From the NCBI GenBank assembly GCA_023251835.1, contig JAHEXZ010000018.1, positions 1,383 through 65,382 on the forward strand: a stretch of DNA of 64,000 nt. The letters run 5' to 3'. Source of the stretch: Bacteroidota bacterium. Lineage in GTDB: Bacteria > Bacteroidota > Bacteroidia > 2-12-FULL-35-15. Under the pieces are notes generated by a model that was not told the origin of the DNA, ran no database searches, and worked only from the letters and a program-made list of their open reading frames with translations. Both the position numbers and the translations under genes were made by a program. This document shows positions 20,215-41,337 of this stretch, piece after piece. Every line of letters begins with the position of its first letter. The first letter of the stretch is position 1.

Positions 20215-20225
20215 TTAACCCCACA

Positions 20226-22186: not shown

Positions 22187-22217
22187 TGCAAATATACTAC
22201 AAACTATCTTTTGAAAT

Positions 22218-23450: not shown

Positions 23451-23537
23451 TATTTATTGCTGTGCGTTACTATCGCCAATCATACTAAAGCTGGAAAATC
23501 TTTATAATTAACGTTAAAACTTATAAAGTATAAAATT

Positions 23538-25874: not shown

Positions 25875-26085
25875 TTACCTATATTTTTATGTTTAATTTA
25901 TAAATACAATAATTACTGCAATTAAGCAATTAATTTATACATCTTTTTAGAACAAATATGTGTTTTTGATTTTAATTTTAAGGTTTTTACACATCATTAT
26001 ATTTAGTAATGAGATATCAAATTTATTATTGTTTCTAATATCTTTAAAAATAATATTCTTATTTGATATAAAACTGTTCAGGAAT

Positions 26086-27189
26086 TTATTTTCTTAGCTT
26101 TAATAATTGTTCACATATATACCCAATATCTTCATTGGTTAATGTAGAAAACGTAGGCACACTAATAACATTTTTACTTATATCTTCACATACCGGCAAT
26201 GAATGGGGTTCATAAATTTCCAAGATACTAGAAGCATAGAAACCCGGACGAGTTTCGATTCCTACACTTTTTAACTGTTCTATAAGTTTATCACGTCCTT
26301 GCGGAAATACTTTGCTGTCAAGTTTGAGGGCGATTGCCCATATTACCGCATCAACATCACTATTGACTTTTTGCATGGTAATACCATCTTTGTCTAAAAG
26401 GTACTTTTTATATTCTTCATTTACCCTGTAACGTTCAGTCAATATAGCATCTTTTTGTTCCAACTGAGCTACTCCGATAGCTGCCTGGAAATTAGTAAGC
26501 CGAAAGTTGTGTCCCGGTAATTCGTGCCAATAAAATTTTTTACCCCTGTCCATACCATGGCTGCGATACAGCATCATTCTCTTTTTTAGTTCATCAGAGC
26601 TTGTAACCACCAAACCGCCTTCGCCAGTTGTAATCATTTTTGTAGCTTGTAAACTAAAAGTACTCAGTTCTCCAATTGTTCCGCTTTCCCGCCCTTTATA
26701 TTTTGAAAAGAGTGATTCGGCACAATCTTCAATTACGGCAATTTTATGTACTTCTGCAATTTCCATAATTTCATCCATTGCACATACATTTCCATAGGTA
26801 TGAATAGGGATAATTGCTTTCGTCTTTGTTGAAATATATTTTGGAAGTTCCTCTGCAGATAAACACCATGTGTCCGGATCTATTTCAGCAAAGACTGGCC
26901 TTAACCCCATGTGTATGGCTATATTGGCCGCAGCCATAAAGGCAAATCCCGGCACTATTACTTCATCTCCAGGTTTTAGTCCTAATCCAAGATAAGCCAG
27001 ATGAATGGCTGTAGTTCCGTTAGACACAGCAAGAACATGTTTCTGTTCAAGTAGTTTACTAAAACCGGACTCCATCCTTTCGAGATATTCGCCTCCTGAA
27101 ATCCAAGTAGATTTTAGGGCATCGGTAACATATTCTATTTCATTCCCCCAGAAGTTGGGTTTTGTCCAGGGAATAAATTTATCTTTCAT
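26086..27189 (-). CDS. DegT/DnrJ/EryC1/StrS-family PLP-dependent sugar aminotransferase
   Basis: 367 aa; VSNGTTAIHLA, DEVIVPGFAF and the lysine region SFSLQATKMIT are typical. Confidence 0.8.
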   Translation of the reverse strand: MKDKFIPWTKPNFWGNEIEYVTDALKSTWISGGEYLERMESGFSKLLEQKHVLAVSNGTTAIHLAYLGLGLKPGDEVIVPGFAFMAAANIAIHMGLRPVFAEIDPDTWCLSAEELPKYISTKTKAIIPIHTYGNVCAMDEIMEIAEVHKIAVIEDCAESLFSKYKGRESGTIGELSTFSLQATKMITTGEGGLVVTSSDELKKRMMLYRSHGMDRGKKFYWHELPGHNFRLTNFQAAIGVAQLEQKDAILTERYRVNEEYKKYLLDKDGITMQKVNSDVDAVIWAIALKLDSKVFPQGRDKLIEQLKSVGIETRPGFYASSILEIYEPHSLPVCEDISKNVISVPTFSTLTNEDIGYICEQLLKLRK

Positions 27190-27806
27190 CCGTTTAATTT
27201 GTTAATGTACATGTTCCATTTTAAATTATACATATTAAAGCTGGTACTATATTTAAAACTGTTTTTTACATAAAAGCTATTTGCTTTTTGCTTCACATCA
27301 TGTACCGTGACTTTGTATAGACAAATCCCTCTTTTTAGAAATTCTTTATTTAAGACTTCAACTATTTGTGTTCCCATACCTTTGGCTCTATAGTTGCCGT
27401 CTGTAATAATAGCAACCAACTCTGCTTTTATACCAGTATTCTGCTTTTTAACATAAAACAAAGTTTCAAAAAGTTTAGGAACTATTTGTATTGGATTAAG
27501 AAAAACCCTTGGCAGAATAATTTTAAAATATTTGAGAAATTTTCTGGTAATGATCTTAAATATCTGTTCACTGTCCACAGAAGCAAGAGCAAATCCACAA
27601 ACGGCATTATCTTTTAGAGCAAAAATAAAGAAACCCAGCTTTTCTCTTAAAATATCTGTAAATAACTCCTGTATAAAACGTCTCCCGAATAATGATAAAA
27701 AACCATTGTCCGAAAGGTGTTCCATATATAACCGGGCAGATGAATTTATTAATTCGGAATTAGAACTATCTGTAACAATAAAATCAATGTTACTTTCACA
27801 AACCAT
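27186..27806 (-). CDS. GNAT-family N-acetyltransferase (putative sugar N-acetyltransferase)
   Basis: 206 aa; acetyl-CoA motif A-like ELVAIITDGNYRAKGMGTQIVEVL; 4-nt overlap with aminotransferase. Confidence 0.5.
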   Translation of the reverse strand: MVCESNIDFIVTDSSNSELINSSARLYMEHLSDNGFLSLFGRRFIQELFTDILREKLGFFIFALKDNAVCGFALASVDSEQIFKIITRKFLKYFKIILPRVFLNPIQIVPKLFETLFYVKKQNTGIKAELVAIITDGNYRAKGMGTQIVEVLNKEFLKRGICLYKVTVHDVKQKANSFYVKNSFKYSTSFNMYNLKWNMYINKLNG

Positions 27807-27835
27807 ATTATTTAATTCTGTTGATACTATTTTTT

Positions 27836-28795
27836 TTAATTATATATTTTGTTTGTTGTCTCCCTGCTTGTTTCACTTTCTAATGCATCTTTCACAAAAT
27901 CATTTAATGGCATTTTAAGCCATTCCGAGGCTGTTTTCCAGCTATATTCTTCGCTTTGCTCATCTAATATCACACGCTGTTCTGCATCGTCAACAGTGAC
28001 TTCAAACAGAGTGACAATGTTGTGATATTTTTTGTTTGCGGGTTTTTCAAAAATGAACTCAAAGCATGCTATCTGTTTGCAGTTTTCTCCTGTTAATAAG
28101 CACTCTTCATATAATTTTCTTTTTGCTGCATCTTCTCTTCTTTCTCCATATAGAACACGCCCACCCGGAACCCACCATTCATCCTTTTGGGGTTCATTTT
28201 TTCTTTTTATAAGAAGTATTTCTCCCTTTTTATTTTTTACAAGCAGGTCAATACATGGAATAGGCAAGGATTCTAAAATAACATTATATAACTCTTTCCT
28301 GATAAAACCTTTTTCAAATGTCAAATTTTCTGCAAAAAAAAAATCAGGGTTATTAGCCTTGAAATTACCATTAAATAACTGTTTCAAAAAATCGTGTCCT
28401 ACCAATCTAATCCATTCATCAGGATGTTTCCAGGAAAAATCGCTACTCTGAGAATCCGTTCTAACGCTATCATTATCAACTTGTACCCTATAAACTGTTG
28501 TTATTGTATGCTGATAATAATTCTCCAGTTCATTCTTAATCATGTAATCGTATATACCTTGCACTGAAATCGTATCAGATACAATACCGCACTCTTCAAG
28601 AAGCAATCGTTTTACTGCATTTAGTCTACTTTCAGCAAATCTTACACGCCCACCAGGAATCCACCACTGGCCCTTTGCCGGCTCATTTGTTCTTTTAACT
28701 AATAATACCTTATTGTTTTTATTACAAACAAGCAACTCAACCGCACTTAGGGGAAAGGATCGTTTTATTTCAGTATACAGCTCCTGCGGAATCAT
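27836..28795 (-). CDS. tandem double NUDIX protein, GDP-mannose mannosyl hydrolase (Gmm/WcaH)-like x2
   Basis: 319 aa with two repeats: LLVKRTNEPAKGQWWIPGGRVRFAESRLNAVKRLLLEECG and LLIKRKNEPQKDEWWVPGGRVLYGERREDAAKRKLYEECL; each matches the Gmm-type modified Nudix box (KRTN.PA.G.W..PGGRV). Confidence 0.7.
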   Translation of the reverse strand: MIPQELYTEIKRSFPLSAVELLVCNKNNKVLLVKRTNEPAKGQWWIPGGRVRFAESRLNAVKRLLLEECGIVSDTISVQGIYDYMIKNELENYYQHTITTVYRVQVDNDSVRTDSQSSDFSWKHPDEWIRLVGHDFLKQLFNGNFKANNPDFFFAENLTFEKGFIRKELYNVILESLPIPCIDLLVKNKKGEILLIKRKNEPQKDEWWVPGGRVLYGERREDAAKRKLYEECLLTGENCKQIACFEFIFEKPANKKYHNIVTLFEVTVDDAEQRVILDEQSEEYSWKTASEWLKMPLNDFVKDALESETSRETTNKIYN

Positions 28796-28992
28796 TTTTG
28801 TTCATTCAAAATATGAAATCCAAATTCAGAATGTTTCCTCTGCATCTCAAAAAAACAGAGACCATCGTCATTAAGTTCTCCGATGAAGTTTGTAATTTTA
28901 TTTTGTACTTTTAATTCTGACAAAATGCAGAAAAAAGTGTTTTTGTGCCCTTGCATAATTACGATAGGAATTTTAAGGTATAACTTCCACAT
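28792..28992 (-). CDS. small ORF (66 aa) filling the gap between C-methyltransferase and NUDIX genes
   Basis: Only evidence is the tight fit: 4-nt overlap with NUDIX start and 20-nt overlap with upstream stop in an otherwise translationally coupled operon; no recognisable domain. Confidence 0.25.
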   Translation of the reverse strand: MWKLYLKIPIVIMQGHKNTFFCILSELKVQNKITNFIGELNDDGLCFFEMQRKHSEFGFHILNEQK

Positions 28993-30223
28993 CAGGGAGC
29001 GGTCTGATAAATTTAGTTCCGTTATTGACCAGGTTCTGCTCCCGTTTCATAAACCCATCCATAAAACTATAAGGCAGAGCCAGTAAATAATCCGGCTTTA
29101 CTGCCCGCATTTCATCTTCATTTTTGATCGGAATATCAGCACCAATAATATATTTCCCGAATTTAAACGGGTTGGAATCTGCAGCAGCTTCAATCAGATT
29201 ACTACCAATACCACAATATTGGAGAATTGTATTGCCTTTTGTTGAAGCTCCGTATATCCAAATCTTTTTTCCTTCTGCTTTTATTTTTTCACATAATTCG
29301 ATTAAGTCAGTCCTTGTTTTTTCAACACGTTTCATAAAATCGAAGTACGTGTTCGGATTATAAATTCCCATTTCCATTTCATCTTCTAAAACTTGCTGGT
29401 ACCGTTGCGTTTGAGGATACTTAGCGCATCCTTTTTTCTTGATAAATAACCTGAAGCTGCCGCCATACACATCATTCAATGTTACATCAAAAATTTCGAG
29501 ACCTGCTTTTTCCATAATCCATCGCATATGGTCAGTAGCATAATAGCCGACATGCTCGTGCACAATGTTATCGTACATATTTGTTTTAACCATTGCCGGC
29601 AGATAAGCCATCTGTATTACCCAGATACCATCATCAGCCATACATGCAGCTACGTCTTTTGAGAACTGAATCGGGTCATATAAATGATAAAACATGGCGA
29701 TACTAAATACCAATTTTGCTTTTTTTCCGGTAGCAGACTCAAATGTTTTTTGGTCAAAATAGGTATTGACGATTTTAAATTTATCCGATTTAAAAACAGG
29801 CTTAACATTTTGTGCAGCATCAATACACAATAAATCGCAATTTCTATTCTGAAGGTAAGACAGGAGTGTTCCGTCATTACCACCAATATCCAGCACTAAA
29901 TCATCTTTTGTAACATCCTTATATGCTAAAGCACTGTCTAACACATCCTTTAAAATTTTAGGCATGGAGGAGTTTGTAGAGCTGGTAAATGGGTACTCCT
30001 GATACATTTGTGTCATATCAAAAGAGTGCCCAAGCTGTAAAACACCACAGCTATTCTCATTTTTTTCACACAAAACCAAATCCAGTGCCTGCTTTGATAA
30101 ATTGCTCCTGTAATTTAAGTTTTGTGGAAATATGGAAGATAAATACTGGTTGCCCAAATCTATACAAGGAATTAAAGATGGATTACCGCAAAACCGGCAA
30201 GAGTGAATTTTTACACTATTCAT
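28973..30223 (-). CDS. NDP-hexose C-methyltransferase (TylC3/NovU-like; Zn-ribbon + class I MTase + C-terminal C-MT domain)
   Basis: 416 aa; N-terminal CRFCGN...C zinc-binding pair, MTase motif LVLDIGGNDGTLLSYL, long C-terminal domain typical of sugar C3-methyltransferases. Confidence 0.7.
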   Translation of the reverse strand: MNSVKIHSCRFCGNPSLIPCIDLGNQYLSSIFPQNLNYRSNLSKQALDLVLCEKNENSCGVLQLGHSFDMTQMYQEYPFTSSTNSSMPKILKDVLDSALAYKDVTKDDLVLDIGGNDGTLLSYLQNRNCDLLCIDAAQNVKPVFKSDKFKIVNTYFDQKTFESATGKKAKLVFSIAMFYHLYDPIQFSKDVAACMADDGIWVIQMAYLPAMVKTNMYDNIVHEHVGYYATDHMRWIMEKAGLEIFDVTLNDVYGGSFRLFIKKKGCAKYPQTQRYQQVLEDEMEMGIYNPNTYFDFMKRVEKTRTDLIELCEKIKAEGKKIWIYGASTKGNTILQYCGIGSNLIEAAADSNPFKFGKYIIGADIPIKNEDEMRAVKPDYLLALPYSFMDGFMKREQNLVNNGTKFIRPLPDVEVIP

Positions 30224-30934
30224 TTATTGAAGCAGATTAAGTTTAGTTTTCATTGAATCAAGGTATTTAAATACCTCTCTTGAATCGGGAAAAGATATAT
30301 CCGGGTTTTCAATTTCCTGCACATCAAATGGTCCGTCAAATATAACATCCGCATTCAAATGTTCTGCAATATCTTTCAAACGAAGTGCGTTTGAAGCACC
30401 TACTTCAATTACACCTGTTTTATCAAAATTAGAGGTAATATATCCGGCAACAAAATCAACACTGCAAAAGCTATAGCGACTTTCGGCATCAAGAAATATT
30501 TTATTCCCCATAAGCATATCTATTAGCACACCTTTTTTTAAGCCTTCTCCAAACATGCTGCTTAAACGCACAACCAAATGGTTGCCAAAATTGCATATAC
30601 TTTCTGCTGCAAGTTTATGACGGCCATAAACAGTATCAAGCTGGCAACGCGCTGAAACTGTACTTATCTGAATAAATTTGTCAAAAGTACAACCGTAAAA
30701 AATGTCAGCTGTTTTTTGTACCGTTTCTACGAAATCTTTTTCCGGATTATTTTTCGCCCAAAATCTTGCAGCAGGAGCTGCTGCATTTATAACAATGTTA
30801 TAGTTTTTTCCGATGTGAACAGAGTTGTTATCCCTGGTAACGGGTATGACACAGAAATTTTCTTTTGATGCTAAAGAAGAGCATACACTTTTACCTACAA
30901 AACCATTAGCACCAAATACGGCAACAGTGATCAT
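30224..30934 (-). CDS. short SDR-type NAD(P)-dependent sugar epimerase/ketoreductase
   Basis: 236 aa; Rossmann VFGANGFVGKSV; catalytic YGRHK (YxxxK). Confidence 0.6.
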   Translation of the reverse strand: MITVAVFGANGFVGKSVCSSLASKENFCVIPVTRDNNSVHIGKNYNIVINAAAPAARFWAKNNPEKDFVETVQKTADIFYGCTFDKFIQISTVSARCQLDTVYGRHKLAAESICNFGNHLVVRLSSMFGEGLKKGVLIDMLMGNKIFLDAESRYSFCSVDFVAGYITSNFDKTGVIEVGASNALRLKDIAEHLNADVIFDGPFDVQEIENPDISFPDSREVFKYLDSMKTKLNLLQ

Positions 30935-31335
30935 TTTACAAATATATCTTCTCTTATTATTGGTGTTTTACAATCATCCCAAGGCTTTGTAAGCATTGCT
31001 ACAGCTGTCAGAGGAGTAATTGCATAAACGGTATGACGCACTCCGATAGGAGTTCTGAGACAAGATCCCTTACTGACGTGGATTATCCTTTGTTTCATTT
31101 CAGGAGCATCAAGTGTAACAGCAATTCCGGAACCTTCCACAATTAAAAAATATTCGATAAACTCCGGATGGTAATGATTCCCCCGGGTTGTGCCAGGAGT
31201 AAAATAAAGCAGGTTAAACTCTTTAATAACATCCTGAGGCACCCAGGTAAATATCCCGCCACGGCCATCTTTAACAGTTTCTACATTGCAAGTAGGAAAG
31301 AATACTTCCATTCTTTCATCTGACAATTTACTCAT
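30931..31335 (-). CDS. cupin-fold sugar isomerase/epimerase (FdtA/WxcM-like)
   Basis: 134 aa; RGNHYH and GVRH histidine motifs of small cupins that sit in deoxy-aminosugar clusters; size fits 3,4-ketoisomerases. Confidence 0.5.
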   Translation of the reverse strand: MSKLSDERMEVFFPTCNVETVKDGRGGIFTWVPQDVIKEFNLLYFTPGTTRGNHYHPEFIEYFLIVEGSGIAVTLDAPEMKQRIIHVSKGSCLRTPIGVRHTVYAITPLTAVAMLTKPWDDCKTPIIREDIFVK

Positions 31336-31353
31336 AAGAATATCGATTTGTTG

Positions 31354-32055
31354 TTATAAATTTTTTAATCTTAAAATAAACGTTTCTTTTGTATATCTAA
31401 TGATTCTGAGCAAAAGTGCTTTATTTCCAACCCCTATATTCCTTTCCCCAAATATAGCAGGAATTTGCAATATTGTATAATTTTTTTTCTGCAAATAAAA
31501 CATTAACCGTATAAAATAATCACCAAACCCCCAAAAGATATCATCAAAGTTTAGCTGCTGAATAACTGTTTTCTTTATTGCATAAAAGCCAAATAAATTC
31601 TCCGTAACTTTTGAGAACAGAATTATTCGAATAAACAGGTTAAAAAACCAACTGGATACAATTCGCGAAATGCTCTCATGTTTTTCGAGAGGCAAATACA
31701 AGAACCTGGAAGCAATCACACAGTCATAATATTTTAAGTTATCTATTAGTATTGGTATATACTTTGGCATATGATTAAAATCGGAATCCATTACCACTAT
31801 TATATCACCTGAGGCCTTTTCGATACCACATCGGATAGACTTAGCGAACCCTCTGTCTGTAGTTCTTAAAACAGGTACAACGTAATCATAATTTTTTTCT
31901 TTAATTGAGTTGTATGTTCCATCAGGGCTGTTGTCATCTACCACCAAAATTTCATGTTCGTAATCCTTTAAAACATCATGGATAAAGGGAACTAATGCCT
32001 GTATATTTTCTTTTTCATTGTAACAGGGGAGTATCACGGATATTCTATTAGCCAT
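31354..32055 (-). CDS. GT2 polyprenyl-phosphate sugar synthase (ArnC/DPM1/GtrB-like)
   Basis: 233 aa; ISVILPCYNE, VVDDNSPDGT, VVMDSDFNH (DxD) characteristic of GT2 dolichyl/undecaprenyl-P glycosyltransferases. Confidence 0.75.
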   Translation of the reverse strand: MANRISVILPCYNEKENIQALVPFIHDVLKDYEHEILVVDDNSPDGTYNSIKEKNYDYVVPVLRTTDRGFAKSIRCGIEKASGDIIVVMDSDFNHMPKYIPILIDNLKYYDCVIASRFLYLPLEKHESISRIVSSWFFNLFIRIILFSKVTENLFGFYAIKKTVIQQLNFDDIFWGFGDYFIRLMFYLQKKNYTILQIPAIFGERNIGVGNKALLLRIIRYTKETFILRLKNL

Positions 32056-32163
32056 AATTAATTAGTTATCTTAATCAAAGCGTAATGTACAAAAAAATGT
32101 AAAACTAAGGAGTGATTTTAGATAATTGAGAAAAGAATTATGAATGCAATCATAAGATTATTT

Positions 32164-33678
32164 TTATTTCAATTTAAAGACTTCCATAATCTTTTCACCA
32201 TTAACATCAATTTTATGTACAGGTGTGCCGATATTATAATCTTTAGGGTGCCATCTGAAATTGGTTATAAAGTAATTAGCAGATTTAATGTCAAAAGTAT
32301 ATTCTAACCGACCTCTTTCTTTAACAGGCATTATACTGAAATTTAACATGGGGGTTAAATCCATATCATTATGATCTGAAGTAATAAATATTTTCGGGGA
32401 CGAATCGTTCGTCAAAATGTATTCTAATCCTTGTTTGTAGGATAATCCCCAATAATCAAGATCGTATTTCTCCCGGATATTGCTTCCCGCCAACAGATTG
32501 AAATATACATTCTGATGCGGGTGGTTCCTAACCATAAAAAATACAGTGAAAATAATGGAAAGGAAAGTTAAAGTGAGGGTAGAATTAATTATAATAACCT
32601 TTTTAATTGTTTGAAGCAATTGAATAAAACCATACACAGCAATAAGTACGAAAAAAGGATACACAAAATAAACATGTCTCCATGAATCATATACTGTGGA
32701 ATGTAGTACAATAACTGCTATAATTGGAGAGGCAAATACGAATAAAAATAGCTGGACAGGGATAGTGCTTCTAAAATTTTTCAATGTGTTTTTCACTATG
32801 TAGGCTATTCCCATAACAAAAATAAATATATAATATAGGGGAGTGGTTATACAAATCCATACGGGCAGATAATGCCATGGAACATTTTGTATCGGAACAA
32901 AATTGCCCATATATAGTGTAGTGCCATTACCGGGGTATTTGCTCATCTGCTTAAGTGCTTCCATAAAATGATACCAAGGGGCTAACCAAAATACAGGCCA
33001 GAAAACAATAACAAACACCACCAGATAAATCAAGAACATAATAAGAGGAATTGTTCTTTTTTTTTTTTGAAAAAAATAAAAATAAATGGTTGCGATTGGT
33101 ATCAATATACCCATAACTCTTATATCTATTGTAAATCCACAGAATATTGAGTGAATAAGAGCGGATAAAACAGTTTGCCTCTCAACAAATAAAAACATGG
33201 TGTAGGTAGAAATAATGCAGAAACAAAGCATCATCAAATCCTTCGAATTATAAAAACCTTCAGCAAATATTCTGGGAGAAACAACCAGCATAACCACACA
33301 GAGTAAAGCTGCAAAATGATATTTAAAAATTTTCAACGCGAGAAAATAAAAAAACAGGGAAGCGATAAAGAATGTTAAAAAAGTAAGTAAATGACGTAAT
33401 AAATAAACGCTCCTTTCATCTGTTACATTGAACATCTTTTCTGCCCCATACAATAAAAGTTCAAACGCTGGTCCATGGTATTTCCCGTCATTTGCAAGCA
33501 AAGCCCGAGAGTTATGGTTCTTTATAAAATTATAGTTAGCCTCTCCAATAACATATCTCTGCACTTCTTCATCTGTCGATATTCCATAATCCGAATAAAT
33601 AAAACAGCCCGTCAGAAAAAAAGTTATAAAAAACACATAAGCAATTTTTTTAAATATGCTGTTGTTTGTATAAATCAT
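32164..33678 (-). CDS. GT-C (ArnT/PMT-like, GT39/83-type) membrane glycosyltransferase family GTC-1 (copy 1)
   Basis: 504 aa; first-loop motif SDYGISTDEEVQRY; 11-12 TM then C-terminal soluble domain; paralog of 38560..40065 (LLRHLLTFLTFFIA / MLRHGICFLTFFIA, YNSKDLMMLCFCIIS / YNSKDLSMLCFCIIS). Confidence 0.7.
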   Translation of the reverse strand: MIYTNNSIFKKIAYVFFITFFLTGCFIYSDYGISTDEEVQRYVIGEANYNFIKNHNSRALLANDGKYHGPAFELLLYGAEKMFNVTDERSVYLLRHLLTFLTFFIASLFFYFLALKIFKYHFAALLCVVMLVVSPRIFAEGFYNSKDLMMLCFCIISTYTMFLFVERQTVLSALIHSIFCGFTIDIRVMGILIPIATIYFYFFQKKKRTIPLIMFLIYLVVFVIVFWPVFWLAPWYHFMEALKQMSKYPGNGTTLYMGNFVPIQNVPWHYLPVWICITTPLYYIFIFVMGIAYIVKNTLKNFRSTIPVQLFLFVFASPIIAVIVLHSTVYDSWRHVYFVYPFFVLIAVYGFIQLLQTIKKVIIINSTLTLTFLSIIFTVFFMVRNHPHQNVYFNLLAGSNIREKYDLDYWGLSYKQGLEYILTNDSSPKIFITSDHNDMDLTPMLNFSIMPVKERGRLEYTFDIKSANYFITNFRWHPKDYNIGTPVHKIDVNGEKIMEVFKLK

Positions 33679-33685
33679 GAAACCT

Positions 33686-34786
33686 CTAATAATTATTTAA
33701 AACCTCTATGACTTTATTCACTTCCTCATCGGTAAGTTCTGCATACATAGGCAAACTCAAACAATGTTCTGCAAGGTATTCCGCATTGGGACAATCTCCT
33801 TTTTTGTAACCCAAATTCTGATATGCTTTTTGCAAATGGCAAGGCACAGGGTAATGCAAAGCCGGATATATGTTATTCTGATTTAAATAACTCATTAGCT
33901 CCTGCCGTTTTTCAGCGGTGATTACAAACAAGTGATAAATAGAATCTGCCCACTCAGGCTGTGCCTGCATTTTAATTTTAGGATTGACTATTTCATTTTG
34001 ATATTGTCTGGCAATATCTTTCCTGCGCTGGTTCCAGCCTTCAAGATATTTCAGCTTAATTTTAAGTGAGGCGCCTTCCAAACCACCCATACGGTAATTA
34101 TAACCAATTTCATCATGAAAATACCTTACCTGAGAGCCGTGATTCCTCAGGCTTTGCAGGTGTTTATAATATTCTTCGTTATTGGTTGTAACTCCTCCCG
34201 CCTCTCCACACGCCCCCAGGTTTTTCCCCGGATAAAAGCTAAAGCAGGCCATTTCGCCAAAACCTCCAACCATACCCCCTTTATATCTTGTTCCCTGGGC
34301 TTGTGCAGCATCTTCTATTAAATACAAACCATTCTTTTTAGCTATGGCTACAACTCCGTCAATATCAAAGGGCTGTCCGTAAAGATGAACTCCTATTATT
34401 GCTTTTGTTCTGGAAGTAATTTCCCGCTCTATTTTAGCAATATCTATCTGCCAGGTATCAGGAGTACAATCCACAAAAACAGGGGTTGCACGGGTGTATG
34501 AAACACCCCATGCCGTGGCAATAAATGTATTAGCAGGCAGTATCACCTCGTCTCCTGCTCCAATTTCTAAAGCCAGCATCGCTATATGAAGGGCGCTTGT
34601 GCCATTGTTTAAGCCTACCGCATATTTTGTTCCGCAAAACGCAGCAAAATCCTTCTCAAACATTTCCACAAAAGGCCCTCCTGAAAAAGCTGTATTTTCA
34701 TACACTTTTTCAAATGCTTCAAAAATCTCTTTCTTGACTTGTTGATGCTGCCCTTTTAAATCCAGACAGTTAATTTTTTCAGACAT
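33686..34786 (-). CDS. DegT-family aminotransferase, WbpE/WlbC-like (UDP-3-keto sugar aminotransferase)
   Basis: 366 aa; LNNGTSALHIAMLAL, DEVILPANTF, FYPGKNLGACGEAG lysine region. Confidence 0.8.
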   Translation of the reverse strand: MSEKINCLDLKGQHQQVKKEIFEAFEKVYENTAFSGGPFVEMFEKDFAAFCGTKYAVGLNNGTSALHIAMLALEIGAGDEVILPANTFIATAWGVSYTRATPVFVDCTPDTWQIDIAKIEREITSRTKAIIGVHLYGQPFDIDGVVAIAKKNGLYLIEDAAQAQGTRYKGGMVGGFGEMACFSFYPGKNLGACGEAGGVTTNNEEYYKHLQSLRNHGSQVRYFHDEIGYNYRMGGLEGASLKIKLKYLEGWNQRRKDIARQYQNEIVNPKIKMQAQPEWADSIYHLFVITAEKRQELMSYLNQNNIYPALHYPVPCHLQKAYQNLGYKKGDCPNAEYLAEHCLSLPMYAELTDEEVNKVIEVLNNY

Positions 34787-34794
34787 TTAATTTT

Positions 34795-35280
34795 TTATTT
34801 TTTTATCGCCCTCGCAGGGTTACCGGCAACAATTGAATTTGCAGGCACATCCTTTGTTACTACTGCCCCGGCACCTACCAATGAATTTTCACCAATAGTA
34901 ATCCCGCATAGTATGGTAGCATTGCTGCCAATAGATGATCCTTTTTTCACATACGTTTCTATCAGTTTCCAGTCTGCATCTGTTTGAACAGAGCCATCCG
35001 GATTAGTGGCTCTCGGGAACAAATCATTTGTGAACATTACACCGTGTCCAATAAAACAGTTATCCTCTATATGTACACCTTCACAAATAAACGTATGGCT
35101 GGAAATCTTACAATTTTTTCCAATTGATGCACCTTTTTGTATCTCAACGAAAGCCCCCACCTTTGAGTTATCGTCAATAGAACAACCATAAGCATTCACA
35201 AAGTTGAAAATTTTTACATTGTTTCCAATCTTTACATTGTTTAATGACTGTTTATCATTTGTTACAGTAATTACTTCCAT
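34795..35280 (-). CDS. left-handed beta-helix (hexapeptide) N-acetyltransferase, WbpD/WlbB-like
   Basis: 161 aa; hexapeptide repeats [31 protein letters not shown] ... [25 protein letters not shown]. Confidence 0.75.
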
Positions 35281-35288
35281 GATCAGAG

Positions 35289-36290
35289 CTACAATAGAAT
35301 TTCTTTTCCTTTTTGTTTAATTGATTGTTGTGCACCTTCCAGAATTTTAACAACCTCGAGTCCCAGGTTAAAATCGGATACTGGCTTTGTGTTTTTGGTA
35401 ACAGCGCAGATAAAGTCTGAAGCCATATACGACAGTGCCTCATTATTCTGTATTTTAGGAATATATATATCTCCCACACGATAATCAACTAGTATACGAT
35501 GTTTCTCTTCATCTGTTTTCACCATATAACCAGTATCGTATACTTTTAGTTTTTCCGTAGGTTCCATATCATTAAATACGATCATCTTTTTATCACCACC
35601 AACTAAAGTCATACGTATTTTCACCGGAGAAGCCCAAGAACAGTTAAAATGCGCAATCATACCGGATTCGAAGTTAACTGTCATGTATGCTATATTTTCT
35701 ATCCCATTATTGGTATGCGATATTCCTGTAGCATTTATACTGTATGGTTTTTCAGGAATCAAATGGGCGAGTATGGAAATATCGTGCGGGGCTAAATCCC
35801 ACAGCACATTTACATCCTGCTGAAAAAGGCCAAGATTGATACGTGTAGAATCAAAGTAGTTTACTTTTCCTATATCTCCATTACTTACAAGTTGCTTCAT
35901 CTTTTGAATAGCACCTGTATAAAGGAAAGTATGGTCTACCATTAATACTTTATTTTTAGCATTTGCTATTTCAATTAATTTTTCAGCTTCAGCACCCGAA
36001 GCGGTCATAGGTTTTTCAATTAACACATGCTTATTACTGACAAGTGCTTTATAGGCAAGCTCGTAATGTGAAAATACAGGTGTAGCAATAACAACGGCAC
36101 TAATAGTGGCATCATTAAAAATATCATCTGCATTGGTTGTGGTTTTTACAAATGAATAATTTTTTTTAATACTATTCAACCGTTCTGGTCTATAATCGGC
36201 CACAACTTCCACTTTACAGTTATCAAAAGCCGAAAAATTTCTCAGAAGATTAGGTCCCCAGTAACCAAAGCCAACTATGCCAATTTTCAT
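35289..36290 (-). CDS. Gfo/Idh/MocA-family NAD-dependent oxidoreductase, WbpB-like (UDP-sugar 3-dehydrogenase)
   Basis: 333 aa; [14 protein letters not shown] Rossmann start, family-typical EKP motif (LIEKPMT). Confidence 0.75.
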
Positions 36291-36428
36291 TTCAAAAATA
36301 AAATATCAAAAACGTACAAAAATAAGCAAATAACCTCCTTCTCAAAATATTATTTTAAGGCAACCCGTTATGTTTTATTTTAAAGAGTTGTCGGTTAAAT
36401 ACTGTTCTGATATCTGTATCCTGTAGTT

Positions 36429-36481
36429 TATACTTCGGCTGAATGAGTTTGCAAAAACCAGCAAACTCGTTCGCTCAGTAT
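36429..36481. repeat. 53-nt palindromic intergenic repeat, copy 2
   Basis: TATACTTCGGCTGAATGAGTTTGCAAAAACCAGCAAACTCGTTCGCTCAGTAT in the divergent region between the WbpB-like operon and the plus-strand GT2 gene. Confidence 0.8.
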
Positions 36482-36553
36482 ATAAATTGTTTTGACTTTA
36501 TATTGTTATAAAATAATGAAACTTCAATATTGAATTTTCTTTATATTTAGCAT

Positions 36554-37273
36554 ATGCAAAGCTGGTCGATTATTATCTTTTGTTATAATGAAAAGGGGAA
36601 TGTGGCTCATGTGATACGTGATTGTGTATCCGTTATACGGGCTATTGGAAGCAAGGAAAGGGAAATCATAATTGTTGATGACGGAAGTACCGATGGTTCA
36701 GTTAATGAGATAGAGAATGAAATCATAAAATTTCCCGGGGAAGCTTTTAAGCTGATAAAACATTCTACGAACCTTGGTATAGGTATGGCACTGCGCAGTG
36801 GGTATCAAAATGCGGTATATGAGAATGTGTGTGCAGTTCCTGCCGATAGGCAATTTAATGTTACGGAGTTGCTCCCTTTTTCTGAAATTGAGCAGGAAAC
36901 TTTTGTTTGTTTCTATAGAAAAGAAAACCAAAGTTATTCCCTGCTGCGTAATATCCTTTCTTTATTTAACAAACAATTCAATAAGTTGCTGCTTGGAATA
37001 TCCTTTAAGGATATAAACTGGGTAAAGATATATAAATCTGCTTCTTTGAAAAAACTTGATTTAAAACTGGAAAGTTCACTTATTGAAACTGAGATATGTG
37101 CCAAACTTGTTGCCATTGGAAACAGATTTATGGAGATGCCGTCTATCTATTTACCCCGGAATAATGGAGTTAGTAAAGGTGCTTCCTGGAAAATCGTAAG
37201 AAAAGCGATAACAGAAATGCTTAAAGTATACTTTGCGGTCAGAGTATTTAAATCAAAAATTAAAAAACACTAA
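36554..37273 (+). CDS. second GT2 polyprenyl-phosphate sugar synthase (ArnC/DPM1-like)
   Basis: 239 aa; IIIFCYNEKGN, IIVDDGSTDGS, and an Asp in AVPADRQFN in place of the canonical DxD; divergent from the long minus operon. Confidence 0.7.
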   Translation: MQSWSIIIFCYNEKGNVAHVIRDCVSVIRAIGSKEREIIIVDDGSTDGSVNEIENEIIKFPGEAFKLIKHSTNLGIGMALRSGYQNAVYENVCAVPADRQFNVTELLPFSEIEQETFVCFYRKENQSYSLLRNILSLFNKQFNKLLLGISFKDINWVKIYKSASLKKLDLKLESSLIETEICAKLVAIGNRFMEMPSIYLPRNNGVSKGASWKIVRKAITEMLKVYFAVRVFKSKIKKH

Positions 37274-37276
37274 AAT

Positions 37277-38515
37277 TTATATTACTTCCCTGCCGGTTTT
37301 GACCTTAAAATAATTCAGAAAATAACTAAAGGTTAATGCATACAGAAACACCCACACAGGAAGAGCTGTAATAATCAGTCTGTCACCTTCACCAAAAGAA
37401 ACTGGACTTGTAAGAAAGATATAATAAGCCAGTATGTAGCAGAAAATAGTCAATATAAAGTAAGACATTTCTCTTTGCTTGTAAAGCAGAAACAATATGA
37501 CTATAAGTGGTAAAATAAAAATAAGATGCAGCCAATAATAAAACGTGTTAAGAATATCCATATAACGAACATATTGAGGATATATAAATTGCCTTGTTCC
37601 AAGTAGAAAACCTGGAAAAGCATTCATATTTGTTTTTAAATTCTGCAGGTAAATATCAATATACACAGACTTGTTTGCAATCAGGTATTCCCTCACTTCC
37701 GAGGTGGAAAAATTAATTGTTTTTTTTCTTGCTTCCTCCAGGCTGCTATTTTCAATTTGTATTACTCCCTGTGCAAGGATATAATTTCTATATGTTTCCG
37801 TACTAATGCTGGATATGGAAAAAGTATTGTATTTAATTTTCATTAATGTTATTTGGAATAGTAGGGGAATTATAACAAACACAAGTATTACAATACTTTT
37901 GGGAGTTTGAAAATATTTCTTCAGATAAAAAAAAGGTAATATAATAAAGAGCATCAATATAAGAGGAAGTATGAATACCGGCTTTAGAACAGTTAATAAT
38001 ACCAAGATAAACAAAGAGCCATGAAAAAATTTTAGCCCCGATGCATCTTTGAAATTATGTGTTATAAAATAAACAAGAACTGACATAAATAACAGTGCTG
38101 TAACTTCAGTAAGGCATTGCATGGTCAACCCAAAGTATGAAAAGTTAAGCGCCATCAGTAGCCCGGAAACATAACTTAGTGCCCTATTCCGGGTTACCCG
38201 TTTTACCGAAAAAAAAATCAGGTTGATAGAAATAAGCCAAAAGAGTAGTTGCATCATCCATAGGGCAGTAGCACCAAAAGATTTATAAACCAACAGAATA
38301 ATCAAAGGGTATAAGAAAGGACGTATATACGAATAGCCTGTTTCGGAAAATTTGTAAAACTCATCACTGGTATTCAGATATGTAATAGAATCTATTGTAG
38401 TGAATAGTATTCCTCCGTTAATATTAATATGAAGGCTGGAGAAAAAAACAAAATAGATAATAAGCAATAAATAATTGAGCAGATAAATATCAATGTATTT
38501 TTTAAAATGCCCCAT
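37277..38515 (-). CDS. multi-pass membrane protein family M2 (copy 2)
   Basis: 412 aa; paralog of 22218..23450 along the full length. Confidence 0.65.
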   Translation of the reverse strand: MGHFKKYIDIYLLNYLLLIIYFVFFSSLHININGGILFTTIDSITYLNTSDEFYKFSETGYSYIRPFLYPLIILLVYKSFGATALWMMQLLFWLISINLIFFSVKRVTRNRALSYVSGLLMALNFSYFGLTMQCLTEVTALLFMSVLVYFITHNFKDASGLKFFHGSLFILVLLTVLKPVFILPLILMLFIILPFFYLKKYFQTPKSIVILVFVIIPLLFQITLMKIKYNTFSISSISTETYRNYILAQGVIQIENSSLEEARKKTINFSTSEVREYLIANKSVYIDIYLQNLKTNMNAFPGFLLGTRQFIYPQYVRYMDILNTFYYWLHLIFILPLIVILFLLYKQREMSYFILTIFCYILAYYIFLTSPVSFGEGDRLIITALPVWVFLYALTFSYFLNYFKVKTGREVI

Positions 38516-38559
38516 AAATATTCAATTGCTGCTTTTATTCCTATAAGTTTAAAATTAAC

Positions 38560-40065
38560 TTATCGTAGTTTAAATGCTTCCATGATTTTTTCTCCCCTTA
38601 CTTGTATCTGAAATACCGAATTTGGAATATCGTAATCCTGGGGATGGTTCCTGAAATTTGTAATAAAATAGTTGCCCGAATTAATGTCTTTATCTTTTAC
38701 CAGACGCATCCTGTCTTCTGCCGGTATACAATAAAAATTCAGATAACCAGGCAGATTTGCAGCCGTTATGTGTATCTGGTCAGATTTATCATGCGCTAAT
38801 ATATATTCCAGTGCCTGTTTATAAGATAGTCCCCAATATTCCATTTCAAATCTTTGCCGGAGATTATTTCCGGCAAGAACGTTAAAATAGACATTCTGAA
38901 ATGGATGTATGCCAATCATTACTATTATGGTATATGCCATTGATAATACTGTTATTACAACAATAAGTTTTTTAATCATCATGTTTTTTATAATCTGAAA
39001 AACCTGACTAAAGCCATATACAGCAATAATTAGAAAAAAAGGATAAATAAAAAACACATGCCGCCATCCATCATAAAGAGAAGAATTTAAAACTATTATG
39101 GCAACAACGGGAGTAAAAAGCATAAATAAAACAGAATGGAGCATAAAGGTGCTTTTAAAACTTGCAAAAGAATTTTTTATAACAAAAAACAAACCTGTTA
39201 TAAATAGCACAGAGTATACCACAGGCGTTGTTATGCCAATCCATGCCGGTATATAATGCCAGGGCAAATCTGCTGCAGGGACACTTTGTCCAAAATATAA
39301 ATTTGTAGAGCCTTTCACCGGATAGTTGCTCATTTGTTTAAAGGCTTCAATAAAATTTTGTACCGGGTCGAGCCAAAGTACTGGCCAGAAAGCCATGATA
39401 AAAAACAGCGAGTAAGCAATAAACACCAACAACGGAATTATTTTTCTCTCTTTTTGTAAAAAGAAAAAATATACAGTTGCGATCGGCAATAAAATAGCCA
39501 TTATTCTTATATCAACTGCAAAACCACAAAGCAAAGCATGGATAAAAGCACTGAAGATGGTTTGTTTTTCAATAAATAAATACATAGTATATGCTGAAAT
39601 AATACAAAAGCACAGCATAGATAAGTCTTTTGAATTATAAAAGCTGTCAGCAAATATTCGCGGTGATAAAACAAGCATCAGGCAGCCTAATAAGGAAAGA
39701 GCATGCCTCTTAAAAATTTTTAAACATAAAAAATAAAAACACAGAACGGCTATAAAGAAGGTTAAAAAGCATATTCCATGACGCAGCATAAAAATATGCC
39801 GGGCATCTGTTAAATCAAAAAGTTTTTCAGCAGCAAATAAAACAATTTCATAAGAGGGGCCATAATATCTGTGAAAATTTGAAAGTAACTCGGCTGAGTT
39901 TCCTGTTCTTATATAATTATAATTTAAGGCTCCTATTTGTGTCCATTGCACCCCTTCATCCCAATAGATTCCATAATCTGTAAAAATAAAACAAGCAACA
40001 GTAAACAAACAAATGAAAAAAATGAGAGCAGCGCGCTTAAAAAAAAGTTCTTCTTTGTTAAACAT
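38560..40065 (-). CDS. GT-C (ArnT/PMT-like) membrane glycosyltransferase family GTC-1 (copy 2)
   Basis: 501 aa; TDYGIYWDEGVQW first-loop motif; paralog of 32164..33678 including C-terminal domain (EKIMEAFKLR / EKIMEVFKLK). Confidence 0.7.
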   Translation of the reverse strand: MFNKEELFFKRAALIFFICLFTVACFIFTDYGIYWDEGVQWTQIGALNYNYIRTGNSAELLSNFHRYYGPSYEIVLFAAEKLFDLTDARHIFMLRHGICFLTFFIAVLCFYFLCLKIFKRHALSLLGCLMLVLSPRIFADSFYNSKDLSMLCFCIISAYTMYLFIEKQTIFSAFIHALLCGFAVDIRIMAILLPIATVYFFFLQKERKIIPLLVFIAYSLFFIMAFWPVLWLDPVQNFIEAFKQMSNYPVKGSTNLYFGQSVPAADLPWHYIPAWIGITTPVVYSVLFITGLFFVIKNSFASFKSTFMLHSVLFMLFTPVVAIIVLNSSLYDGWRHVFFIYPFFLIIAVYGFSQVFQIIKNMMIKKLIVVITVLSMAYTIIVMIGIHPFQNVYFNVLAGNNLRQRFEMEYWGLSYKQALEYILAHDKSDQIHITAANLPGYLNFYCIPAEDRMRLVKDKDINSGNYFITNFRNHPQDYDIPNSVFQIQVRGEKIMEAFKLR

Positions 40066-40236
40066 TATTTCATTTACATTATCTTAAAGACTAACCATCC
40101 CCAAAATTGATTATTTATACGACCAAGGGTACAAAAATATTTAATTTGATTGCAGGGCTAAAGTCCAATGTTTTTTTCGCTTTTAATTCAACCCAGAGTT
40201 CTCATTATTTACCGAAACAATTTCTATTGAAAAATT

Positions 40237-40262
40237 AAATCCCGAAGGTTTCTTCGGGATTT
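40237..40262 (-). terminator. intrinsic terminator-like hairpin (11-bp perfect stem, 4-nt loop) followed by TTTTT on the minus strand
   Basis: AAATCCCGAAG-GTTT-CTTCGGGATTT. The minus-strand downstream sequence is AATTTTTCAATA. It sits between the TPR gene stop (40387) and the start of the GTC-1 gene (40065). Confidence 0.55.
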
Positions 40263-40386
40263 AACAGTACAGCCAGACTAAACAGGCTTACATACAAATG
40301 AGTTCATTGGCTTAGCGTCTTTACTTTGGCAAATCTGCCAAAATTTAAGATAATATCTTTTATACTTGTTGAAAACTGAAACAAAG

Positions 40387-41337
40387 TTATTTCTTTTCCG
40401 GTTTGGCAATCTTTTCAGATGCACTTTTCTGAGCCATTTCATCAGCCTTTTTCTTTTCTCCTTCCGCCCAAGCTAAATTATTTTTTGCCAACTGATCATT
40501 TGGATTATTATCTACTGCTTTTTTAAAAGCATCAATTGCTTTGTCATAATCTGGCATAGACATATAGGTAACTCCTTTATTAATCAAAGCTACTGCATTT
40601 TTAGGTTCCATCGTTAACATTTTATTCCAAACCTCAATGCTTTTATCATACTCCTGAAGTTTTAAAAACTGAAGCCCATAAAGTGTATAAAAAGCAATAT
40701 CTTTTTTATCTTCAGGAGTTTTTTCCATTTGTTCTAAAGCTGTAAGTAGTTTTTTCTGCTCACTTTTAGCCCAATTCAAATTATTTTTAGCTAACTGGAA
40801 AGTGCTGTCAAGTTCAACAGCCTTTTCGCCATAAGCAATTCCTTCTTTATATTGTTGAATTATGGTATAAGCAAAACCAAGGTTACTATAAGCCGCAGCA
40901 TTATTAGGACTAAGTTCAATCGCCTTTTTTAAAGGTTCAATAGCCTTCCCAGCCATTCCTGAATTAATATATGCGTTTGAAAGGTTAAGCAAATTAGAAA
41001 AATTCGGATTTGCCCTTGCTGTATTTTCATACGCAGCAACATCTATCTGTTGCGCCTGATTAACGACTTGCTCCTGCTCTGTTTTACTACCCATAGTTTT
41101 ATAAATAATATAAACTACAGGAAGCAACAATAAGGCAACAATAATGATTGTTTTAATATTTAATCCTGGTTTTCCTCCACCAGATGCCGTATTTTCATTT
41201 TTATCTTCCTGCCCGATATCAATATCCAAGCGTTCTTCTCCATTAAATGGCTCTTTTTCATTCTTCTCCTGAGTAACATCAGCATTTTGATTTGTATCTA
41301 CTGTTATACTTTCGTTTTTTTCTTCTGGATTGATCAT
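40387..41337 (-). CDS. tetratricopeptide-repeat protein with acidic N-terminus and one TM helix
   Basis: 316 aa; repeated TPR-like units (AIEPLKKAIELSPNNAAAYSNLGFAY ..., AIDAFKKAVDNNPNDQLAKNNLAWA); IIIVALLLLPVVYIIY TM. Confidence 0.7.
   Translation of the reverse strand: MINPEEKNESITVDTNQNADVTQEKNEKEPFNGEERLDIDIGQEDKNENTASGGGKPGLNIKTIIIVALLLLPVVYIIYKTMGSKTEQEQVVNQAQQIDVAAYENTARANPNFSNLLNLSNAYINSGMAGKAIEPLKKAIELSPNNAAAYSNLGFAYTIIQQYKEGIAYGEKAVELDSTFQLAKNNLNWAKSEQKKLLTALEQMEKTPEDKKDIAFYTLYGLQFLKLQEYDKSIEVWNKMLTMEPKNAVALINKGVTYMSMPDYDKAIDAFKKAVDNNPNDQLAKNNLAWAEGEKKKADEMAQKSASEKIAKPEKK

Follow-up and report, generated by a model that had tools for sequence, protein, structure and literature searches.

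Lipid-sugar-dependent glycosylation in the periplasm is known mainly from systems of Proteobacteria, Firmicutes, and Actinobacteria that use one glycosyltransferase of the GT-C fold. In the three-component Gtr systems of Salmonella and Shigella (GtrA/GtrB/GtrC), and in the GT136 system of Citrobacter (PMC11127046), a GT2 synthase is encoded beside the GT-C enzyme and a dedicated step tailors the sugar. ArnC, the undecaprenyl-phosphate L-Ara4FN transferase, and ArnT (GT83), which transfers L-Ara4N to lipid A, form a comparable pair, for which the DegT-family aminotransferase ArnB tailors the sugar nucleotide. The nearest precedent for two GT-C enzymes per donor is the Pgf pathway of Streptococcus mutans (PgfS, a GT-A protein, with PgfE, PgfM1, and PgfM2), in which one polyprenyl-phosphate-HexNAc synthase and two GT-C enzymes are encoded in one operon (PMC12041528). 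Mycobacterial PpgS (Rv3631), a short GT2 protein of about 226 residues, provides polyprenyl-phosphate-GalNAc for the GT-C enzyme Rv3779. The subject here is a glycan island in a 64,000-nucleotide stretch of a Bacteroidota genome (contig JAHEXZ010000018.1; this whole stretch is the window), in which two families of membrane proteins, GTC-1 and M2, are each present as an a-type and a b-type copy. The reading that we favor, with a probability of roughly 0.6, is that GTC-1 and M2 are periplasmic transferases of polyprenyl-phosphate sugars that come in two ancient module types. The four genes are as follows.

38560..40065, minus strand: GTC-1b, a 501-residue membrane glycosyltransferase with a predicted GT-C fold (PMT_2 match, E = 2.2e-8)
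37277..38515, minus strand: M2b, a 412-residue polytopic membrane protein from a family without annotation, with a predicted minimal GT-C fold
32164..33678, minus strand: GTC-1a, 504 residues, the a-type paralog of GTC-1b (PMT_2 match, E = 6.6e-9)
22218..23450, minus strand: M2a, 410 residues, the a-type paralog of M2b, with a small protein and another PMT_2 GT-C encoded next on the same strand

All four open reading frames (ORFs) appear in the ORF listing at the coordinates and on the strand assigned to them in the initial annotation of this DNA, and the two paralog pairs proposed there are genuine. In composition-adjusted BLASTP, GTC-1a and GTC-1b share 54% identity and 75% similarity over 497 residues (E = 0), and M2a and M2b share 48% identity over 407 residues with zero gaps (E = 1e-134). 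It had been foreseen that the pairs would dissolve if the similarity were restricted to low-complexity transmembrane (TM) segments. Both alignments, however, are collinear end to end, through the loops and through the soluble C-terminal domain of GTC-1, and an artefact of this kind is therefore excluded. The polar motifs of both families are, moreover, common to dozens of homologs, so that the chance that these are not true paralogs, and that hydrophobic composition has created the resemblance, is vanishingly small. Of the signatures first reported, DYGIxxDE, EKIME(A/V)FKL, (Y/F)KKYIDI..LNYLLL, and LP(L/V)WVFLY are present; the C-terminal M2 signature had been misread as (W/F)GEGDRL and is (W/G)EGDRL, that is, WEGDRL in M2a and GEGDRL in M2b. 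An all-against-all BLAST found no third member of either family among the window proteins.

By sequence profile GTC-1 belongs to PMT_2 (PF13231; CAZy GT39/GT83-type), and not to PMT proper or to ArnT. The two copies score 36.6 and 34.9 bits (GTC-1b, 34.9) against a gathering cutoff of 26.1. Neither has an NCBIfam match at E <= 0.1, the ArnT model included, and the GTC-1 profile matches no PDB sequence at E <= 1. The window proteins contain neither a MIR domain nor a match to PF02366 (PMT), and a precomputed PF02366 match occurs in some GTC-1 homologs only; the NCBI name attached to homologs is "glycosyltransferase family 39 protein." The AlphaFold2 (AF2) model of GTC-1b, built with 54 homologs, has a pLDDT of 91.9 and a pTM of 0.93 and includes a C-terminal alpha/beta domain of ~100 residues. 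In a Foldseek search of the PDB every one of its best 45 matches is a GT-C enzyme, and 24 reach E <= 1e-3; the matches include STT3/PglB/AglB, ALG9/ALG12, ArnT, AftA, PMT, and Emb (STT3, 1.5e-6; ArnT, 3e-4). Catalytic acidic residues of GT-C enzymes sit in the first loop after TM1 (PMC11127046). In the corresponding loop of GTC-1, which follows model helix 2-30, G32 and D36 are invariant among the 54 homologs and D30, Y31, and E37 are conserved in >=90%. At the level of predicted structure GTC-1 is thus a GT-C fold glycosyltransferase in both its helical architecture and its first-loop acidic residue, and this loop would face the periplasm. Many GTC-1 homologs with 40-44% identity (P0097-P0165, about 690 residues) carry a C-terminal extension of ~190 residues; in P0144 the extension is a carbohydrate-binding module (CBM) of the CBM_4_9 family.

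M2a and M2b have no significant match in Pfam or NCBIfam; the only hit of M2b is to Thymopoietin at chance level (E = 0.093), and a Pfam scan of 41 members of the family returned one weak PMT_2 match (E = 0.003). The AF2 model of M2b is nevertheless a confident one (pLDDT 92.2, pTM 0.92). It lacks a periplasmic soluble domain, and its top 22 Foldseek matches in the PDB are all GT-C enzymes (ArnT, STT3, PMT, AftB, ALG3, and PimE), with probabilities of 0.6-1.0. Among 49 divergent homologs, down to 23% identity, the residues D42, Y46, R65, E137, Q221, D378, and R379 are invariant. Two of these, D42 and Y46, belong to the first loop, which follows TM1 and joins helices 8-28 and 68-80 of the model. 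In the predicted structure, then, M2 has the helical architecture and the first-loop acidic residue of a GT-C enzyme, with weak fold scores. We conclude that M2 is, as modeled, a minimal GT-C-like protein that lacks a soluble domain, and that its family is absent from the curated libraries queried.

A first impression that the M2 family is very rare, which arose from 46 word-index matches, was rejected when an exhaustive profile search gave 1343 representative clusters (50% identity) at E <= 1e-3, 281 of them at E <= 1e-30. A second word-index search, with the divergent M2 alignment, added no further named or annotated relatives. Annotators are thus offered a GT-C-like hypothesis for a "hypothetical protein" family of >1000 representative clusters, and the invariant residues make a short list of targets for mutagenesis. 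Two homologs (P0044/P0045) are 703 residues long, with an extension that matches no family. Another, the distant homolog P0046, lies within a Wzt-type O-polysaccharide locus, and a further distant homolog adjoins two GT4 genes. In the protein collection M2a, GTC-1a, and GTC-1b are present exactly, on a 79,910-bp contig, and for M2b the best match is 75% identical, with no match at 100%; perhaps gene calling in the source assembly missed M2b, or the search did not retrieve it.

The b-type genes stand in a module whose order in the window is TPR316, GTC-1b, M2b, a convergent GT2b, and then the GFO, Hexapep, and DegT genes of a sugar pathway, here called pathway B. GTC-1b and M2b are co-oriented and separated by 44 bp, and the ends of M2b and GT2b are 3 bp apart. 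The other members of the module are these.

40387..41337, minus strand: TPR316, a membrane-anchored TPR protein with multiple TPR matches in Pfam, the conserved upstream neighbor of GTC-1/M2
36554..37273, plus strand: GT2b, a 239-residue GT-A (GT2) protein, putative polyprenyl-phosphate sugar synthase (Glycos_transf_2, E = 7e-14)
33686..36290, minus strand: sugar pathway B, three genes assigned by Pfam, on the strand opposite to GT2b and divided from it by a divergent intergenic region
35289..36290, minus strand: GFO/IDH/MocA oxidoreductase of pathway B (Pfam)
34795..35280, minus strand: hexapeptide N-acetyltransferase of pathway B (Pfam)
33686..34786, minus strand: DegT aminotransferase of pathway B (Pfam)

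Homologous loci on other contigs, which bear L numbers, were obtained by exact-protein look-up and by one genome-contig scan with a tighter M2 alignment (six loci), and were mapped against the window proteins; a genome-contig scan with M2b alone gave zero relatives. The order of the b module recurs in L001/L011 and L003, at protein identities of 55-89%, and is partly preserved in L012, where GTC-1 and M2 are adjacent. Orthologs of GT2b (70-71% identity) occupy the same position in L001, L003, and L011, and pathway B proteins that are 79-89% identical are syntenic with the b module in L001, L003, L010, and L013. Orthologs of TPR316 (52-65% identity) are found directly upstream of GTC-1 and/or M2 in L001, L003, L005, L010, L014, and L015, and further upstream within the locus in L006 and L013. 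The gap between GTC-1 and M2 measures 10-103 bp in six loci, the window b pair included. The adjacent genes had been taken for a module from the letters of one genome; the unit recurs in at least five other loci of metagenome-assembled genomes (MAGs) of Bacteroidia, and TPR, GTC-1, and M2 form a conserved unit.

Two candidate transcription signals lie between the TPR stop (40387) and the GTC-1b start (40065).

40235..40264, minus strand: intrinsic-terminator-like hairpin, a 13-bp perfect stem (40235-40247 / 40252-40264) with a 4-nt loop and a T-run
40132..40139, minus strand: candidate promoter box TATTTTTG of the GTC-1b/M2b unit, which fits TAnnTTTG, ~67 nt upstream of the GTC-1b ATG

The hairpin that had been noted ahead of the b pair is real. 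The consensus of the Bacteroidota -7 promoter box is TAnnTTTG; this motif occurs 1.5 times per kb, counting both strands, and the TATTTTTG box is hence only suggestive. The 44-bp gap between GTC-1b and M2b contains no TAnnTTTG box. Because a hairpin and a -7 box lie upstream and none is found in the gap, GTC-1b and M2b seem to be transcribed by themselves, as a unit of two genes. A search of 20000-39999 for promoter and terminator consensus sequences found fewer sites than in shuffled sequence and no terminator at the M2b/GT2b junction; this search ends short of the hairpin, which was found by direct inspection.

A likely source of the sugar is suggested by two GT2 genes, each of which flanks one of the copies. 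GT2a starts 108 bp downstream of GTC-1a and is followed by a second sugar pathway, pathway A.

31354..32055, minus strand: GT2a, a 233-residue, DPMS-like GT2 protein, putative polyprenyl-phosphate sugar synthase (Glycos_transf_2, E = 1.5e-25)
26086..31335, minus strand: sugar pathway A, downstream of GT2a, with cupin, SDR-like, C-methyltransferase (Methyltransf_13/14), tandem NUDIX, GNAT, and DegT genes (Pfam)

The best PDB match of GT2a is the Pyrococcus dolichol-phosphate-mannose synthase (5mlz, E = 4e-28, residues 4-210), followed by ArnC and GtrB; that of GT2b, by sequence, is ArnC (9hwj, 1.3e-5). The NCBIfam model of PgfS matches both weakly (GT2a, 3e-13; GT2b, 1.6e-7), and the PpgS model matches both at ~1e-7. 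In L008 a GT2a ortholog (79% identity) again stands beside a GTC-1a ortholog, with the cupin, SDR, and C-methyltransferase genes (78-89%) in the same order. A putative GT2 synthase is thus encoded with a GT-C gene, as in the three-component systems, and the adjacency is conserved. From this genomic linkage to DPMS/ArnC-like GT2 genes, the donor of GTC-1 and M2 is probably a lipid-phosphate-linked sugar.

The best NCBIfam match of the pathway B oxidoreductase is UDP-GlcNAc 3-dehydrogenase, at 5e-40 and below the cutoff of the model. The enzyme set is presumably of the WbpB/WbpE/WbpD type, and by analogy it would yield a sugar nucleotide with a 3-acetamido group, such as UDP-GlcNAc3NAc. The gene content of pathway A points to an unusual product, a branched C-methyl N-acyl amino sugar. 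Among the genes of the island neither a 4,6-dehydratase nor a nucleotidyltransferase was seen. GT2a and GT2b are highly divergent, with 28% identity across 94 residues only, and each has a tailoring pathway of its own; it is therefore plausible, as had been suggested, that the two synthases serve different sugars.

The most likely function of the module is periplasmic sugar transfer from polyprenyl-phosphate donors. According to this scheme, GTC-1 and M2 would be GT-C families, unrelated to each other in sequence, that are active at the periplasmic side of the inner membrane, and each would move a single sugar from a polyprenyl-phosphate carrier to an acceptor in the cell envelope, in the manner of ArnC/ArnT, GtrB/GtrC, and the Pgf pathway of streptococci. 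Within the b module, the oxidoreductase, the aminotransferase, and the N-acetyltransferase would tailor a UDP-HexNAc in the cytoplasm, GT2b would load the tailored sugar onto undecaprenyl phosphate, and some further component would flip the lipid-linked sugar. GTC-1b and M2b, if co-transcribed, would then each transfer the sugar; two different GT-C enzymes per donor imply either two acceptor positions or two successive steps. The membrane-anchored TPR protein may be the partner that binds the acceptor. With another donor, the scheme would hold for the a-type copies as well, GTC-1a in association with GT2a and the C-methyl amino-sugar pathway, and M2a with a cassette that encodes another GT-C.

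A number of observations tell against this proposal. For M2, the fold-match scores of the model are low (best E = 6e-3, for ArnT; TMq 0.49-0.53, with AftB at 0.53), its profile matches nothing among PDB sequences, and profile-profile comparison with GTC-1 (hhalign) gives a probability of 0.6%, that is, no relation. The 46 proteins of the first word-index search are all from uncultured Bacteroidota and all named "hypothetical protein," and the distant homologs P0035 and P0037 lie outside any glycan locus. In L010 the order of the b pair is kept but GT2b is not adjacent. The initial annotation had placed one module beside each GT2 and suggested on this ground that the two may install different sugars; GT2a does flank GTC-1a and GT2b does flank M2b, but M2a adjoins neither. 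The two synthases, at 233 and 239 residues, lack the C-terminal membrane anchor of GtrB and ArnC. Finally, a Pfam scan of the ORFs between 9.8 and 41 kb found no GtrA, SMR, or MATE flippase, and no free ORF of 100-130 residues was seen.

The nature of the acceptor divides the evidence. It is possible, though unlikely, that the acceptor is a protein, and that GTC-1, possibly with M2, is a PMT/TMTC-like O-glycosyltransferase that adds one sugar at a time to periplasmic or membrane proteins, the TPR protein supplying in trans the acceptor-binding TPR module that TMTC carries in cis. PMTs carry a DE motif, which the Asp-Glu pair in loop 1 of GTC-1 resembles; this pair, the PMT_2 relationship together with the family 39 name of the homologs, and the TPR gene as a constant upstream neighbor are hints of a protein acceptor. 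The Pgf system, with one GT2 and two GT-C enzymes, glycosylates proteins (PMC12041528), and the enzymes that attach the O-glycan of Bacteroidota are still undiscovered (PMC12871550). That O-glycan, however, is thought to be preassembled on undecaprenyl phosphate and transferred en bloc (PMC12871550), and there is no specific evidence that links this system to the TPR/GTC-1/M2 module. GTC-1 has neither a MIR domain nor a fused TPR region, the fold search ranks OST, ALG, and ArnT above PMT, and transcription of the TPR gene is set apart from that of the pair by the hairpin. A glycan acceptor is hinted at by the CBM_4_9 fusion of P0144, by the O-polysaccharide locus of P0046, and by the M2 homolog beside two GT4 genes; the first two argue against the protein-acceptor alternative.

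A second doubt concerns the catalytic role of M2. Its tight linkage to GTC-1 in the six loci mentioned above, the congruence of the two gene trees described below, and the weak fold-match scores could also be explained if M2 were not itself a transferase. M2 could instead join GTC-1 in a heterocomplex like that of Pmt1-Pmt2 or EmbA-EmbB, in a non-catalytic or regulatory role, or it could use its GT-C-like scaffold as a polymerase or ligase. It might even be the missing flippase, since none is recognised in the island; the absence of a periplasmic soluble domain likewise fits a role other than transfer. We consider these roles improbable. The first-loop Asp42, with R65, E137, D378, and R379, is invariant down to 23-25% identity, a pattern like that of a catalytic or donor site. 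M2-type genes occur, furthermore, without an adjacent GTC-1 in L005, L006, L009, and L016-L019, and M2 is therefore not an obligate subunit of GTC-1.

Phylogenetic comparison places the a and b types far apart. Neighbor-joining (NJ) trees of each family contain an a clade and a b clade, and the two window copies fall in different clades; M2a groups with the M2 proteins of L005, L006, L007, L009, L013, and L014. In bootstrapped NJ trees of nine linked GTC-1/M2 pairs, both genes are split into {window-b, L001, L003, (L010)} and {window-a, L005, L007, L014} with 98-100% bootstrap support, and the distance matrices of the two families are correlated (mirror-tree r = 0.65). The same a/b split in both gene trees means that GTC-1 and M2 have been inherited as linked pairs. 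The exception is L013, where GTC-1 is nearest to that of L010 and M2 to that of L007, which suggests recombination between the a and b types. The a/b split predates several MAG lineages. The comparison of substitution rates proposed for the paralogs was made and was of limited use: with dN of 0.35 and 0.40, pS of 0.73-0.79, and dS saturated or undefined, the dN/dS ratio is uninformative beyond being low. These values indicate an old divergence, with both copies under constraint.

It had been proposed that a GTC-1+M2 module was duplicated and then split. What stands of this is the linked pair and its two types; with dS saturated, duplication is inseparable from lateral acquisition. The a copies are, as described, embedded separately in the long minus-strand run, GTC-1a and M2a being 8.7 kb apart within 36290..20226, but they are not simply the halves of a divided module. 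GTC-1a is stably associated with GT2a and pathway A. Its orthologs on two other contigs (77% and 67% identity) are followed by GT2a, cupin, SDR, and C-methyltransferase genes in this order, without an M2 gene nearby. M2a is associated elsewhere with a cassette of a small protein and a GT-C, as it is in the window.

20226..22186, minus strand: the [small protein + PMT_2 "GTC-2c"] cassette, a 160-residue protein (21704..22186) and a GT-C (20226..21707), the usual neighbor of a-type M2

The [small protein + GTC-2] cassette stands beside an a-type M2 in L005, L006, L009, and L014. The separation of the a pair is also not peculiar to the window genome. In L014 (923..6734) an inverted copy of the cassette fills exactly the space between GTC-1 and M2; L005 has 5 kb between the two genes; and in L007 M2 comes before GTC-1. 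In L013 (4971..11251) the GFO, Hexapep, DegT, GT2b-like, GTC-1, and a-type M2 genes are all on one strand. L013 and L014 look like snapshots of cassette reshuffling. The separation of a pairs coincides with the insertion of other cassettes. The idea that GTC-1a and M2a come from a tandem copy of the b pair that split recently was dropped, as each has closer orthologs elsewhere than its paralog in the same genome.

A history that would accommodate these arrangements begins with TPR, then GTC-1, then M2 as an ancestral linked unit, which diverged anciently into types a and b. The window genome would hold both, b intact at the ancestral site and a dispersed among other cassettes. At slightly less than even odds, the a-type genes do not stem from a duplication in this lineage; relatives that carry the a-type module would have passed on glycan-island cassettes through lateral transfer or recombination, one with GTC-1a, GT2a, and pathway A and another with M2a, the small protein, and GTC-2, so that the two genes were already apart on arrival. 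It is consistent with this that a- and b-type genes are found at the same TPR-proximal position in different genomes, like alternative alleles, that the cassette of each a copy is conserved elsewhere, that the b-like GTC-1 and a-type M2 of L013 reflect recombination between the types, and that gene order in the islands is heavily shuffled. On the other hand, the GC content of 0.30-0.39 throughout the island betrays no compositional anomaly, no mobile-element genes were seen, and several GTC-1 paralogs occur on other contigs (three on a 345-kb contig), so that the multi-copy state may be old and vertical. The paralogs themselves tell an ordinary story, in which glycan islands diversify through reshuffled cassettes of a GT-C, a synthase, and a sugar pathway.

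The island that surrounds the modules extends from 9.8 to 41.3 kb and contains one GT87 protein, five PMT_2 proteins, the two M2 proteins, two unassigned membrane proteins of ~500 residues, a fused MFS/spermidine-synthase, an acyltransferase, and a methyltransferase. The cassette next to M2a is one of three copies of a two-gene unit (12801..14638, plus strand; 18203..20214, plus strand; 20226..22186, minus strand), each encoding a protein of 148-185 residues and a PMT_2 GT-C of ~480 residues with a 4-bp overlap. By all-against-all BLAST the GT-C copies are 55-58% identical and the small proteins 33-44%; the small proteins match no family. The fused protein, directly upstream of M2a in the glycan operon, is a 778-residue MFS/spermidine-synthase-like protein (23538..25874, minus strand; NCBIfam MFS_SpdSyn), and a TAAATTTG box at 26025 may be an internal promoter for this gene and M2a. 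The two unassigned proteins are polytopic and without a Pfam match (11312..12793, plus strand, 493 residues; 14655..16163, plus strand, 502 residues). A short way past the first TM segment both carry an acidic motif (..TTDELFYY.. and ..STDGRVYE..), and they have orthologs with 54-59% identity in L008 and L005. They may be further GT-C-like enzymes or flippases, and with the MFS domain of 23538..25874 they are the remaining flippase candidates. The GT87-family protein (9834..11303, plus strand) adjoins tatC at the edge of the island, and a 77% identical ortholog is placed likewise in L006. The best-known GT87 proteins are polyprenol-phosphate-mannose-dependent mannosyltransferases of mycobacteria. 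Outside the island, and unrelated to it, a Peptidase_C39 / ABC exporter of the kind that exports bacteriocins or peptides is encoded at 49683..51917 (plus strand).

A more speculative view, which we regard as rather doubtful, is that the whole 30-kb island is an assembly line, mostly of GT-C enzymes, for a periplasmic glycan, in which some ten GT-C-like genes, counting the GT87 gene, the five PMT_2 and two M2 genes, and the two unassigned ones, draw on only two polyprenyl-phosphate monosaccharide donors, and that M2 founds a new GT-C family. If this were true, extracytoplasmic assembly in the style of mycobacterial arabinan and mannan would exist in Gram-negative Bacteroidota, and the TPR, GTC-1, and M2 unit could relate to the periplasmic transferases of envelope or protein glycosylation in this phylum. 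The likeness lies in the many clustered GT-C enzymes that mycobacteria devote to an extracytoplasmic glycan (Emb, Aft, PimE, GT87) and in the GT87 protein of the island. The mycobacterial set, however, belongs to another phylum and envelope, M2 matches no mycobacterial family, and polymer assembly is without support here. Another mycobacterial parallel is PpgS with Rv3779, PpgS being a short GT2 protein like the synthases of the window.

The other systems named at the outset can be compared in the same way. Like the Gtr and GT136 systems, the locus encodes a GT2 synthase beside a GT-C and a dedicated tailoring step, and the CBM fused to the GT-C in ORF12 of the GT136 system has its counterpart in one GTC-1 homolog. 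Those systems have one GT-C and a flippase, whereas here there are two unrelated GT-C genes per module and no recognised GtrA, SMR, or MATE protein; the GT2 proteins are short, DPM1/PpgS-like, and without TM anchors, and the island has about ten GT-C-like genes against one. To the Arn system the locus is related through GT2b, whose best solved relative is ArnC, through ArnT, which is among the best fold matches of both GTC-1 and M2, and through a DegT-family aminotransferase that would act on the sugar nucleotide as ArnB does. It differs in that no NCBIfam equivalog of ArnT or ArnC is matched above cutoff, ArnA, ArnD, ArnE, and ArnF homologs were not found, the pathway is of the 3-dehydrogenase / aminotransferase / N-acetyltransferase type, and lipid A as the acceptor is without support.

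The Pgf system comes nearest in its plan, but PgfM1 and PgfM2 are paralogs of each other within the YfhO family, whereas GTC-1 and M2 are unrelated in sequence, and Pgf acts on Ser/Thr-rich regions of surface proteins of a Gram-positive organism, whereas the host of the window is Gram-negative. With the eukaryotic and actinobacterial O-mannosyltransferases PMT (GT39) and TMTC the locus shares the PMT_2 match and the acidic pair in loop 1 of GTC-1, and the TPR region that is fused in TMTC is encoded here by a separate neighboring gene. It differs from them in having neither a MIR domain nor a fused TPR, in the lower rank of PMT structures in the fold search, and in its donor, which is unlikely to be mannose given the neighboring amino-sugar pathways. 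Paralogous glycosyltransferase cassettes in a glycan island are an ordinary kind of system; what is added here is M2, as an unannotated GT-C-like family, and the TPR/GTC-1/M2 unit. Beside the one-GT-C systems from which this type of glycosylation is mainly known, the window locus thus places a conserved unit of environmental Bacteroidia that combines two unrelated enzymes of predicted GT-C type, one short synthase, and a TPR partner.

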